From Novosphingobium sp. (lineage in GTDB: Bacteria; Pseudomonadota; Alphaproteobacteria; Sphingomonadales; Sphingomonadaceae): DNA of 64,000 nt. The DNA is taken from assembly GCF_030696665.1 (NCBI RefSeq), contig NZ_JAUYRV010000022.1, forward strand, positions 2,976 to 66,975. The letters run 5' to 3'. Below are positions 7,898-11,450 of this stretch, in pieces. Below the pieces are notes generated by a model. It searched no databases. It saw only the letters and a list, made by a program, of their open reading frames with translations, and had not been told where the DNA came from. The position numbers and the translations under genes were made by a program. Every line of letters starts with the position of its first letter. Position 1 is the first letter of the stretch.

Positions 7898-8004
7898 CGA
7901 ATCGCCCTCCCAAGGCTGGCCGAAAATGCCTGATGGGGACAATTCATATGCAACACATACAATCCCGCCTTGACCCAGATCAAAGCAGACCACTGACCGT
8001 TGCG

Positions 8005-8061
8005 CCCCTCCCGCAGGCGGGAGGGGCGCTCAACACACTCCCCTCCCGCAGGCGGGAGGGG
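8005..8061. repeat. Two identical REP-like palindromes
   Basis: CCCCTCCCGCAGGCGGGAGGGG at 8005-8026 and 8040-8061, each a 10-bp stem. Confidence 0.85.
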
Positions 8062-8158
8062 TTGGGGGAGGGCATGTCGCGCACGCCACATTCCTTAACC
8101 ACCCCATAGGTAACGTAACGGAATTTCCCCACCCCCAGCAATGACGTAACCCAACGTC

Positions 8159-8530: not shown

Positions 8531-9139
8531 ATCCAAAGCCCGCCCCCGAAGCACTTCATCCCGCATCGCCAGCAACCGCGCATGCAGCGATTCCCGCACC
8601 ACCTCCGCCCGCGCAAAGTCCTCCGCCTCCCGCTCCGCCGCCCACTTGGCTTTCAGAGCCTCGTACACCGGATGCCCCTCGCGCAGATCGGCCAGCTTCA
8701 CCGCGCCATACTTCTCCGGCCGCCGCGATCGCAGCAGGAACATCAGCAGCGCCGTATTGTGGTGCGTCCAGTGGGTAACGACCTTCCCGCGTGAGACCAC
8801 CGGTCGCTCTTCGCCCGCAATCGCCCGCTCCAGCGCACAATCCTCCAGCCGCGAATACCCCCGCTCCACCGCCGCATCCCAGGCGTGTGCAAAGCCCTCC
8901 GCCCCCTCCCGATGCCGCAACTTGTAAAGCGCCTCCATCGACGCCCCGATAGACCGCGCCGCCTGAGTGACGATCCCCGTAGCCGCCAATGTCGCGATGA
9001 ACCGCCGCTGTTTGTCAGGCGTGATGGAATTGCGCCGGGGAGCGGCGTGGATATAGGGTGCAAAATCCAGCACCTCGTCGTCCGCCGCCACCTCGTCTGA
9101 ACGCACCACGCGCGATGTCCGCCTGTTCTGCCTTGCCAT
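8360..9139 (-). CDS. Hypothetical HTH protein, terminase-small-subunit-like sphingomonad family
   Basis: TPDKQRRFIATLAATG.VTQAARSIG.S.EALYKLR...FAHAWDAA and LLMFLLRSRRPEKYG; last 171 nt overlap the + strand gene. Confidence 0.7.
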   Translation of the reverse strand: MARQNRRTSRVVRSDEVAADDEVLDFAPYIHAAPRRNSITPDKQRRFIATLAATGIVTQAARSIGASMEALYKLRHREGAEGFAHAWDAAVERGYSRLEDCALERAIAGEERPVVSRGKVVTHWTHHNTALLMFLLRSRRPEKYGAVKLADLREGHPVYEALKAKWAAEREAEDFARAEVVRESLHARLLAMRDEVLRGRALDSGDFRDVDGRGRGEAQGVGDFNDVGHGAGLVRREAFEAGEEGAAGLDEVGGRAFKL

Positions 9140-9280
9140 GCAGTGCAAATAACCTATTTGGTTAAATGTAGGAAAGGGAAAACTTCCCCGGGCTGAGCCT
9201 GCCGCTTGAAGCACGTGACTTGGCGACAGGCCTGACTGGCATCAATCAGCGCCGTTCGGCCGAGCCATGTTTAACAATCG

Positions 9281-9859
9281 TCAGATAACGGACGAGCGTT
9301 CAAGATCGTAGACATCGATCTGTTCAGCAACGAAGCGGTCCTGAAGTGCATCGGGTCCGTTCGCTTCGGCATAGTCTGCCTCTGCGGTCGATATCGGAAT
9401 AATTTGCAGAAACGCCACAGTCCGAGTTTCAAGCTGCTGTGATTCCATATCCCAAAGAAATGGATCGACCAGCATGGCGTGCTGCATCACAAAATCCGGA
9501 TGATACAGCGCCACGACATCTTCCAGTATTTCACCGGGACCGATGTTTGCGCCGTCGTTCATGGCTTCGAAAGCGCAACTTGCCAAGATATGCGCGCCGT
9601 GCTGGTAGCCCGCTCCGCAAGCCATCACCAGTTCGACCCGCAAATCCTTGCCATTCGCCTCCAGACCGATGTCATGTGTGGCGAAATCGAGCGTAGCATA
9701 TGTCTTTACGCCCTGCTCTGGCCGATCGTGCACGGCCATGATGTCAACCTTGCTTACCTCTTTACTGTCGCCAACCCCGATGATCTCCGAAGATTCTCCA
9801 AGCTTGGCCTCAAGATAGGCAAAGACTTTCAGGCTGTCGTTGCTGGGTGTCGTGGTCAC
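9281..9859 (-). CDS. SUFU-domain immunity protein (YqcF-like)
   Basis: DRPEQGVKTYATL, LRVELV, PFLW, FLQIIPIS..E..YAEANG.DALQD motifs; GTG start overlaps toxin stop (GTGA). Confidence 0.85.
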   Translation of the reverse strand: MTTTPSNDSLKVFAYLEAKLGESSEIIGVGDSKEVSKVDIMAVHDRPEQGVKTYATLDFATHDIGLEANGKDLRVELVMACGAGYQHGAHILASCAFEAMNDGANIGPGEILEDVVALYHPDFVMQHAMLVDPFLWDMESQQLETRTVAFLQIIPISTAEADYAEANGPDALQDRFVAEQIDVYDLERSSVI

Positions 9860-10410
9860 TTCGGTTTGCTGCCTTTCCATGCCCCCGTTGGCGCCTCCAG
9901 CGAGTGGCCGCGATTGGTGGAAGGCAACTCCGGACGATAATGCTTGGGGTTGTTGTGCTCGTCAAGAAACTGCTTGCGCTTGATGCCGCGCTTCATTGCA
10001 TCTTGCTGGTGCTTCTTGAACTCATAACCCGGCTTGTGGCCCATGTCCCATTCGTCGGTCTTTTTCATCGGCTGCTTGGTCTTCGGATCTCGAACCTTGC
10101 CGTCCTTGCCCTTGGCTGCGTCCCAGGCCTTGTCGCGCACACCCTTGCGAAAGCCGGATGGCCGATCATAGGTTTTGGGAACTTTCCTTGCAGGCTTGGG
10201 AGCCGGCTTCGAGGCGGGCTTGGGCTTCGGAATGGTAGCTTTTGCCTTCGGGCATTTGGCTATCGACTTTGCAGTTTTGGTAGCGGCCTGTTTGCCAACC
10301 TTCTTGATCGCTGCGGTCGCCGCCTTCTTGGCTGCATGCTGCACCACTTTCTTCGCAGCGTACATCAGGGCCAGCCTCGCTGCGGCGCCCACGATAAGTG
10401 GCAAGACCAT
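9856..10410 (-). CDS. Polymorphic toxin with GH-E (HNH/EndoVII) nuclease domain and short Lys/Ala-rich N-terminus
   Basis: WDMGHKPGYEF..HQ...FLDEHNNP.HYRPELPSTNRGH; directly upstream of SUFU gene. Confidence 0.88.
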   Translation of the reverse strand: MVLPLIVGAAARLALMYAAKKVVQHAAKKAATAAIKKVGKQAATKTAKSIAKCPKAKATIPKPKPASKPAPKPARKVPKTYDRPSGFRKGVRDKAWDAAKGKDGKVRDPKTKQPMKKTDEWDMGHKPGYEFKKHQQDAMKRGIKRKQFLDEHNNPKHYRPELPSTNRGHSLEAPTGAWKGSKPK

Positions 10411-10426
10411 GATCGGCTATCCGTCG

Positions 10427-10762
10427 CTAGGCCGCGTCAACTGACGCATCGAGCAGGTCGTGGATGCGCTGGACGGTGTCATCGCCGCCCTGCACATAGT
10501 CCCTCACCGATGGATATGTCAGCGTATCAGGGCCAAAGCATAATGCCATCGCACATAGCAGGCCGAGCGCCTCCTCATCGTCGACGTCCCACGATTGCGC
10601 CAAAGCCATCGTCTGCCGCACCAGACCGCACAAACCCTCCCACCCAAGAGCCTGCGCATCCTGCGGCATTTCTTCCCACAACGTCTTCGCAACATGGTAG
10701 GCAAACGCATCGCCATGAGCCTTGCCGATGCGCTCAAAGGTGGCGCTGGAAATTTCGAGCAT
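10427..10762 (-). CDS. Hypothetical helical protein, putative toxin adaptor/chaperone
   Basis: 111 aa after GGGAGG RBS; stop 16 nt before toxin start; alternative in-frame start 10945. Confidence 0.65.
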   Translation of the reverse strand: MLEISSATFERIGKAHGDAFAYHVAKTLWEEMPQDAQALGWEGLCGLVRQTMALAQSWDVDDEEALGLLCAMALCFGPDTLTYPSVRDYVQGGDDTVQRIHDLLDASVDAA

Positions 10763-11328
10763 GCCCTCCCACTCGCCTTCCTGCACGGACGAATCGCCCG
10801 AAAGCCTTAAACTATAGTGCCAATAATAGCGCCGCCCGCAATGCGCTGCGGTGACCTCGCGCACACCGAACCCCCGCGCCTCGGCGACAACCGCCACCAC
10901 GCCAAACCCGACAGAGGCAGAAAACAAGAAAAATGCGACGGCCATCGCCCTCACGCTTCTGGAAATGGGAGCAAACCGCACCCCCACCCGCACCCCCGCG
11001 CAGGTGAGGCCTTCAGCCGGTTTAAGGAAAGCTCCATGCGCACGCATCCCGCATCCCGCATCCTCCCGATCTCCACCTTCTCAGCTTCGCCCTTGATGCC
11101 TGAATTGAAGGCTGCTGGCCTTGGCAGTGGGGTCAGCGCAAAGACAAAGCCCCCGAAGGCCGGTCGCCAGTGCATTGATATAGGGAAAGGGGCCGCAGGG
11201 AGAGGAAATGCGAGGGTCATCCGGAATGGTCGCCACGTTTCCGGACGCCGTGCGCATGAATGTTCAAACACTTACCGGCTTGATTGCGGAACTCCATCGC
11301 AGAAGTAGCTTCGGCCACTTCGAATCCC

Positions 11329-11357
11329 TTGACCCCGCCCACAAACCCGCCTAAGCG
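11329..11357 (+). promoter_or_regulatory. Putative sigma70 promoter of the str operon
   Basis: TTGACC-N17-TAAGCG about 260 nt upstream of rpsL. Confidence 0.55.
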
Positions 11358-11423
11358 CCCGTCCTTCCACAGGTGCGGCTTGTCCAAACCTCGTGGCTTG
11401 AGCTGAACATTGCCGGTGCGTCT

Positions 11424-11450
11424 CCGCTCACCCTGAGCTTGTCGAAGGGC
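11424..11450. repeat. Half copy of a REP-like element in the rpsL leader
   Basis: CCGCTCACCCTGAGCTTGTCGAAGGGC resembles one arm of a widespread intergenic inverted-repeat family (recalled); partner arm absent. Confidence 0.4.

Follow-up and report, generated by a model that had tools for sequence, protein, structure and literature searches.

A cassette of three tightly packed minus-strand genes occupies positions 9281–10762 of a stretch of 64,000 nucleotides (nt) from Novosphingobium sp. (contig NZ_JAUYRV010000022.1, here C28); the whole stretch is called the window in the following. The genes would appear to form a cargo-effector module of a type VI secretion system (T6SS), consisting of a helper protein, which is putatively the detached C-terminal lobe of a DUF4123 adaptor, a GH-E nuclease effector and a SUFU immunity protein; the N-terminal adaptor lobe and a PAAR spike protein are encoded on a different contig, C14. 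We estimate the probability of this reading at about 0.7. The cassette is a real effector-immunity module with a detached adaptor lobe, which is probably functional, and would as such extend a known mechanism.

For the physical interactions, the secretion, the nuclease activity and the immunity we infer the following course. The helper would bind the N-terminal leader of about 50 residues of the effector, and the TecT-like N-lobe DUF4123 protein from C14 would supply the other half of the adaptor. The N-lobe protein would then connect helper and effector to the PAAR/VgrG spike, and the T6SS would fire the effector into neighbouring bacteria, where the nuclease should degrade DNA. In the producer and its kin, the SUFU-family protein would neutralise the toxin.

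The helper, the effector and the immunity protein

The longest open reading frame (ORF) of the helper gene reaches position 11047; the start was placed at 10762, because all homologues begin at a corresponding "MLxIS". No match to the helper was obtained in Pfam, NCBIfam, PHROG or PADLOC, and the DUF4123 N-terminal alpha/beta lobe (PF13503) matched neither the helper nor the longer upstream extension of its ORF; therefore, by the definition of Pfam, the helper does not count as a DUF4123 protein, and it corresponds to the C-lobe only. An exhaustive HMMER search with the helper recovered a family of proteins of about 110 amino acids (aa), all starting with the same motif (alignment A1). This alignment is homologous to residues 192–296 of the 306-aa DUF4123 adaptor of locus L002 (hhalign 94.9%, E 4e-8), and hmmsearch with A1 detected the C-terminal parts of two fused adaptors, those of L002 (4e-11) and L055 (1.5e-11), as well as the separate helper of L054 (8.5e-22). 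The structure predicted with AlphaFold2 (AF2) is entirely alpha-helical (predicted local distance difference test score, pLDDT, 92.3); its top match in the PDB was the adaptor Tap3 (9r8g_B, TMq 0.69, probability 0.99), with template modelling (TM) values of the runners-up of ≤0.43. By sequence homology and predicted fold, the helper is a putative detached C-terminal, effector-binding lobe of a DUF4123 (Tap/Tec) adaptor, in agreement with the original prediction, which had described the first gene as an adaptor.

Word-index searches for homologues of the helper alone and of the leader alone returned the window's own proteins only. Several long repeat proteins from the HMMER search (P0124, P0128, P0131) were rejected as relatives of the helper, being compositional matches to "LAFGPDGKPYV" repeats, and a locus in an Ilumatobacteraceae metagenome-assembled genome was discarded as a chance match of 34 residues in an unlikely ORF. 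Two other arrangements of the helper domain were observed. In genome G028 (L021 8466–10204) it is found at the N-terminal end of a protein of 229 aa, and the next gene, for an unassigned 350-aa protein, is directly upstream of a PAAR-DUF4123N pair; in G086 (L020 5104–8564) a 118-aa helper is found upstream of an unassigned protein of 1028 aa, 224 kb distant from PAAR-DUF4123N. The helper fold may therefore also serve larger effectors without leader.

The effector matched the complete GH-E profile of Pfam (5.3e-25, 88.3 bits at a cut-off of 25, profile positions 1–68 of 68). The nuclease motifs MGHKPGYE and NRGH, which had been considered intact, are present within DMGHKPGYEF and STNRGH and align with those of homologues; the conserved GH, E and N motif residues of Tox-GH-E were tabulated by Zhang et al. 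2012 (PMC3482391). The gene is the sole GH-E gene of the genome, and a PDB sequence search with its product found nothing. Among about 200 GH-E homologues, a small subset possesses the whole architecture of the window protein, in which "MxxPLIVG" at the N-terminus is followed by a Lys/Ala-rich helix, by one or two Cys residues and by the GH-E domain. Since "MxxPLIVG" is conserved in homologues, the start was assigned to the ATG at 10410; the recorded gene call (P0001) began 15 residues later. The protein is a putative antibacterial GH-E DNase.

Homologues of several phyla share 67–79% identity with the GH-E domain, the values being 73.5% for Rhizobium deserti and 79% for the unassigned metagenomic protein P0002, both of which have the complete architecture, and 67–77% for Bacillota. 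The resemblance to the C-terminus of Bacillus subtilis YqcG, which had been suggested, is reflected in the identity to Bacillota proteins and in database names ("Toxin YqcG C-terminal domain-containing protein"). A transfer of the cassette across phyla from Bacillota, as proposed at the same time, finds no support: alphaproteobacterial and metagenomic copies are about as similar as those of Bacillota, and therefore no specific cross-phylum transfer is indicated.

The leader of the effector, for which Pfam gave no match, consists of a hydrophobic tip, MVLPLIVGAAARLAL, a Lys/Ala-rich helix and a conserved Cys at its end. Conserved leaders of this type, of about 50–70 aa, head no fewer than five different toxin domains, and a helper homologue is encoded ahead of each. 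In L061 the leader is fused to a colicin-E5 RNase domain (Pfam 3.1e-25), and in L015, L058 and L060 to three further C-termini other than GH-E which are without Pfam match; all of these directly follow helpers of the A1 family. Similarity among the helpers is correlated with that among the leaders (Mantel r 0.345, p about 0.03, n = 10), and by its helper as well as by its leader L015 falls together with the window, despite its different toxin. This covariation is compatible with recognition of the leader by the helper and equally with simple co-inheritance. We propose that the leader may be a loading signal recognised by the helper; being common to GH-E, colicin-E5 and other toxin domains, it is a candidate for a new delivery signal.

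The third gene encodes a protein with a Pfam SUFU match (7.2e-27, 94.8 bits at a cut-off of 25), so that the pairing of a GH-E toxin with SUFU immunity of the polymorphic-toxin kind, as the original prediction had it, is supported by Pfam for both proteins. With the SUFU protein encoded after the homologous toxin in Rhizobium deserti it shares 33% identity (E 7e-41); a PDB sequence search with the immunity protein found nothing. The predicted overlap of the toxin stop and the immunity start as GTGA is literally present (immunity GTG 9859–9857, toxin TGA 9858–9856). An in-frame ATG at 9880, 21 nt upstream of the GTG, is an equally possible start and would enlarge the overlap to 25 nt. By family and gene position this protein should be the antidote which protects the producer and its kin.

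Gene contexts in relatives and the T6SS on contig C14

In Rhizobium deserti (L001), a toxin with the same leader is encoded in the order VgrG ... PAAR, DUF4123 (407 aa), GH-E, SUFU. Two marine or environmental contigs (L002, L003) contain PAAR, DUF4123 (306 aa) and GH-E genes, again with the same leader on the toxins, and two full-length homologues of the toxin (P0003, P0026) immediately follow PAAR-DUF4123 and have SUFU genes behind them. These contexts with VgrG, PAAR and DUF4123 identify the toxin family as T6SS cargo effectors loaded via a DUF4123 adaptor. The suggestion that the cassette had been "re-headed for another export route" is therefore not supported, since homologues with the same leader directly follow VgrG-PAAR-DUF4123, the ordinary spike/adaptor route.

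Other loci show the adaptor in separate parts. A metagenomic contig (L054) begins with the end of a DUF4123 N-lobe ORF ("RFYDPRV...", stop), followed by helper, GH-E and SUFU genes. In L058 the order is CHAT, helper, leader-effector, immunity, PAAR, DUF4123N (164 aa) and CPBP, which equals a block on C14 of the genome studied here (see below) with a cassette inserted between CHAT and PAAR; in L061 the C-terminus of a CHAT protein is found immediately upstream of the helper. From the layouts of L058 and L061 it follows that helper-led cassettes are physically linked to the C14-type pair of PAAR and N-lobe proteins. A helper directly upstream of the effector is also present in L014, L015, L054, L058, L060 and L061. 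The window, L014, L015 and the contig of P0002 have the helper alone together with the effector, behind a divergently oriented gene. Judged by these gene orders, the toxin family would make use of a fused adaptor, of a split one with adjacent halves, or of the helper alone.

Among 301 sampled genomes of the family, the helper was found in 4 and the N-lobe protein in 9; neither was detected in the sampled genomes of the same genus. The distribution is therefore patchy.

The search of the whole genome for T6SS genes, which had been recommended as a check of the original prediction, located a cluster on C14. Over-threshold matches to VgrG, PAAR and TssC, and the only strong match to DUF4123, were all on C14 and none on C28; two sub-threshold DUF4123 matches were on contigs C27 and C29. 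No RHS repeat was found in the genome; LXG and CdiB were not searched separately. The core search covered TssB, TssC, Hcp, VgrG, ClpV, TssK, TssL and TssM. Genes on C14 encode ClpV, Hcp, TssB, TssC, VgrG, TssK, TssL, TssM, an FHA protein and a Ser/Thr kinase, with matches to VipB (9e-122), VgrG (4e-72), Hcp (7e-40), VipA (1e-55), IcmF, DotU, VasE and a ClpV-like AAA protein. The genome is T6SS-positive, with a single T6SS cluster on C14. The statement that the cassette has no delivery system holds for the 64-kb window, but not for the genome, where T6SS, PAAR and DUF4123 N-lobe genes are present on C14.

The PAAR and N-lobe genes of C14 are part of a block beside the T6SS cluster (L012 9340–14496), in the order CHAT protease-like (1057 aa), PAAR, DUF4123 N-lobe and CPBP/Rce1-like. 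The gene behind the PAAR/DUF4123N pair is that for the CPBP/Rce1-like membrane protein, and no effector follows the pair. At least four further genomes of the family which bear a T6SS contain the same block, with N-lobe proteins of 161–174 aa, and the pair itself is conserved, with N-lobe proteins in the same size range, in seven related genomes. The PAAR tails of the genome studied here, of G141, of G028 and of L058 end in a conserved "PFCExC" motif, and in L062 (4008–4223) a 71-aa ORF with only this motif and without a PAAR domain precedes the gene for an N-lobe DUF4123 protein; this motif may be where the N-lobe docks. On C14, vgrG is directly followed by a gene for a DUF6931 protein (L013 15899–16438, 7.9e-31), with which it overlaps at its stop codon; the DUF6931 protein may be a VgrG-associated accessory protein.

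Sequencing depths of the cassette and the C14 loci were compared in three metagenomes and amounted to 47 and 54, 12.5 and 13.1, and about 4 and about 3.5, respectively. This co-variation across independent metagenomes argues against a binning artefact and for one organism.

Coordinates, composition and site of the cassette

The features are listed in Table 1. The tight packing of the three genes was confirmed; 16 nt separate the stop codon of the helper from the ATG of the toxin. The impression that the cassette is richer in A/T was also correct: its guanine-plus-cytosine (GC) content is 0.567, compared to 0.623 for the genome (3.83 Mb, 54 contigs), which corresponds to z = -2.1 and to the lowest 2.6% of the genome's 1482-bp windows. 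The enrichment is therefore real but modest.

Table 1. Features of the cassette, its neighbour and the PAAR/N-lobe pair. Positions are those of the window unless a locus on C14 is named.
Feature	Position	Strand	Remarks
Co-adaptor ("helper"), 111 aa	10427–10762	-	Homologous to DUF4123 adaptor C-terminal lobe
Cargo effector, 184 aa	9856–10410	-	Leader, Lys/Pro-rich linker, C-terminal GH-E (HNH/EndoVII) nuclease
Effector leader, residues 1–53	10252–10410	-	Alignments A2 and A3
GH-E nuclease domain, residues 103–172	9895–10104	-	Pfam PF14410
Imm-SUFU immunity protein, 199 aa (ATG 9880) or 192 aa (GTG 9859)	9281–9880	-	Pfam SUFU PF05076
Small-terminase-like protein, 284 aa	8360–9214	-	phrog_4044, 8e-21
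PAAR protein, 151 aa	C14, L012 10672–11127		PAAR motif residues 18–87, then 64-residue C-terminal tail
N-lobe-only DUF4123 protein, 174 aa as listed (~160 aa from internal Met)	C14		Pfam 1.9e-29, residues 19–137

No second copy of any cassette gene was found in the genome. The cassette locus on C28 and the locus on C14 have no DNA in common that could be found, and therefore no rearrangement breakpoint is traceable. A second strain was present in a freshwater metagenome (run X1, corresponding to window positions 8809–11429), with no differences listed within the cassette, a few differences being unlisted; the adjoining terminase-like gene differed at about 2.5% of positions and had half the depth.

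An insertion just upstream of the str operon had been suggested, and comparison with genome G319 of the same genus (L051) places the cassette in a variable, lower-GC slot upstream of rpsL. In G319 the slot is filled by genes for a 373-aa DNA methyltransferase-like and a 368-aa DUF262/HNH-like protein (L051 907–3131), which were named by eye from their sequences. This suggests that the slot upstream of rpsL is a variable hotspot for accessory or defence cargo. No other phage genes are near the small-terminase-like gene, which G319 keeps next to rpsL without the cassette (L051 3984–4796). The gene therefore lies outside the cassette module, and its consideration as a sign of delivery by phage or gene transfer agent (GTA) was rejected. 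A repetitive extragenic palindromic (REP)- or miniature inverted-repeat transposable element (MITE)-like sequence of about 80 nt was noticed at window positions 8000–8090; dozens of copies, with 75–97% identity, are distributed over many contigs, and it produces a spike of depth in metagenome contigs.

Alternative readings and comparison with known systems

Several points weigh against a T6SS module with a detached adaptor lobe. The cassette and the genes for PAAR and the N-lobe are on different contigs, and their interaction is a matter of inference only; moreover, the genome is apparently metagenome-assembled, and co-residence of C14 and C28 rests on binning and on the co-variation of depth. 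The Foldseek E value for the match of helper and Tap3 is weak (0.33), and comparison of the helper with the Rhizobium deserti adaptor by BLASTP and hhalign was insignificant. An A1-type helper occurs in only three of the nine sampled genomes with the PAAR-DUF4123N pair, the present one included, and the pair is therefore independent of the helper family. A small effector such as this one could in principle ride in Hcp rather than on the spike. Finally, the runs which hold the cassette sequence contain metagenomic DNA only, and no RNA data were found.

The cassette could also be a displaced module which has moved out of a PAAR locus and is undelivered, being kept as an immunity gene or as a recombination reservoir with the toxin intact. 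We consider this rather unlikely. It would fit the absence of linkage to any T6SS gene, the lower GC content and the variable slot; promoter and terminator scans at the cassette gave background levels only, with no convincing promoter upstream, and orphan toxin/immunity cassettes are general in polymorphic toxin systems (PMC3482391). Yet the three ORFs are intact with proper starts, and the helper begins exactly where its stand-alone homologues begin. The layout of helper and effector behind a divergent gene is shared by four independent short-form contexts, which argues for a functional transcription unit. The second strain in run X1, with no cassette difference listed versus some 2.5% in the flank, and the C14 pair of PAAR and N-lobe genes without effector of its own also speak against displacement.

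That no export occurs at all is very improbable in our view. The nuclease would then be anchored to the inner membrane of the producer, with its basic region in the cytoplasm and the SUFU protein as antitoxin, as in an intracellular toxin-antitoxin or abortive-infection pair; the hydrophobic tip with a strongly basic stretch after it would indeed suit an N-out/C-in membrane anchor, a terminase-like gene adjoins, and a methyltransferase/HNH pair of the defence type fills the same slot in G319. But homologues occur within operons of VgrG, PAAR and DUF4123 genes, the helper shares homology with an adaptor lobe of T6SS, PADLOC gave no match, and G319 has the terminase-like gene conserved where the cassette is missing. 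Equally improbable is delivery by an extracellular contractile injection system (eCIS), a phage or GTA particle, a type IV secretion system (T4SS) or as a bacteriocin released by lysis. Wherever the context of a helper or leader homologue is informative, it holds PAAR, DUF4123 or VgrG, and the genome possesses a T6SS with an effector-less PAAR/adaptor pair and no RHS repeats, against which stand the absence of T6SS genes from the window, the adjacent small-terminase-like gene and the use of GH-E domains by many export systems (PMC3482391); these routes are disfavoured by linkage evidence only, and eCIS and T4SS genes were not searched for.

A wider interpretation of the T6SS module is offered more tentatively. 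The leader, whose basic helix is amphipathic, and the free-standing DUF4123 C-lobe could perhaps represent an undescribed class of small polymorphic T6SS effectors, encoded by portable cassettes anywhere in the genome, which would plug in trans into a generic hub of PAAR and N-lobe proteins; the leader may carry nucleases across the inner membrane of the target. A literature search found no description of the leader or the helper family. We regard as moderately new a cassette of helper, effector and immunity genes which is unlinked from PAAR and N-lobe genes, and likewise a conserved leader on at least five toxin domains, each behind a helper homologue. A seemingly orphan toxin cassette in a 64-kb window can thus be an ordinary T6SS effector with its loading partners elsewhere in the genome, and the helper family, which is without Pfam, NCBIfam or PHROG model, could provide a handle for finding unlinked T6SS effectors.

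GH-E toxins with Imm-SuFu were listed for type V, type VI and type VII secretion systems (T5SS, T6SS and T7SS) by Zhang et al. 2012 (PMC3482391). The pair YqcG-YqcF of Bacillus subtilis (LXG/T7SS) and the PAAR-Rhs-GH-E candidate effectors of Salmonella (PMC3482391; PMC11669294) agree with the cassette in the fold of the toxin and in the superfamily of the immunity protein; the delivery head of the cassette differs from both, being a short leader with a presumably non-covalent adaptor and neither LXG nor an Rhs/PAAR fusion. With MIX, FIX, RIX, PIX and WHIX the leader shares the character of a short N-terminal region, common to effectors with differing C-terminal toxins and, by analogy, needed for loading. 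It is set apart by description, since it occurs in other taxa, has a hydrophobic tip and is always accompanied by a DUF4123 C-lobe domain. RIX, a basic N-terminal region of 55 aa which is restricted to Vibrionaceae and Moritellaceae (PMC10435454), would appear to be its nearest functional analogue.

According to Colautti et al. 2024 (PMC11582642), a DUF4123 adaptor contacts the spike with its N-lobe and the effector with its variable C-lobe. This division, with a conserved N-lobe on the spike and a variable helical C-lobe on the effector, applies to Tap-1/Tec, Tap6, Tap14 and Tap3 (Unterweger 2015, PMC4557670; PMC11582642; PMC12909789); the C-terminal domain of Tap3 is a five-helix bundle (cryo-EM structure of Tap3-Tke5, PDB 9R8G, PMC12909789). 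The predicted fold of the helper matches Tap3 best, and fused adaptors encoded ahead of related GH-E effectors end in the helper domain. In Tap-1/Tec, Tap6, Tap14 and Tap3, which serve large effectors (MIX, Rhs, Tle), both lobes form one polypeptide with its gene behind vgrG, whereas the effector locus in the window encodes a C-lobe only.

Separate ORFs for the two lobes are known from TecT and co-TecT, which tether the DNase TseT to PAAR4 via a C-terminal extension of the PAAR protein (PMC11582642); according to the summary of Burkinshaw et al. 2018 given there, PAAR4-TecT-co-TecT-TseT-TsiT belongs to the H2-T6SS of Pseudomonas aeruginosa. The likeness comprises a split DUF4123 adaptor, an N-lobe-only protein beside a PAAR protein with C-terminal extension, a separate small protein of C-lobe type next to a DNase effector, and a downstream immunity gene. 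The helper may well function like co-TecT, to which it is likened by role and gene position, not by sequence. Differences are the location of the adaptor halves on separate contigs (C14 and C28) instead of in one operon, linked versions being found in L054 and L058, and the effector, which is small (184 aa) and combines a distinctive leader with a GH-E domain. As far as can be judged from sequences, the window system would have every feature of the TecT/co-TecT arrangement except operon linkage. The precedent would thereby be extended to alphaproteobacteria and to small effectors, and the general picture of T6SS loading is unchanged.

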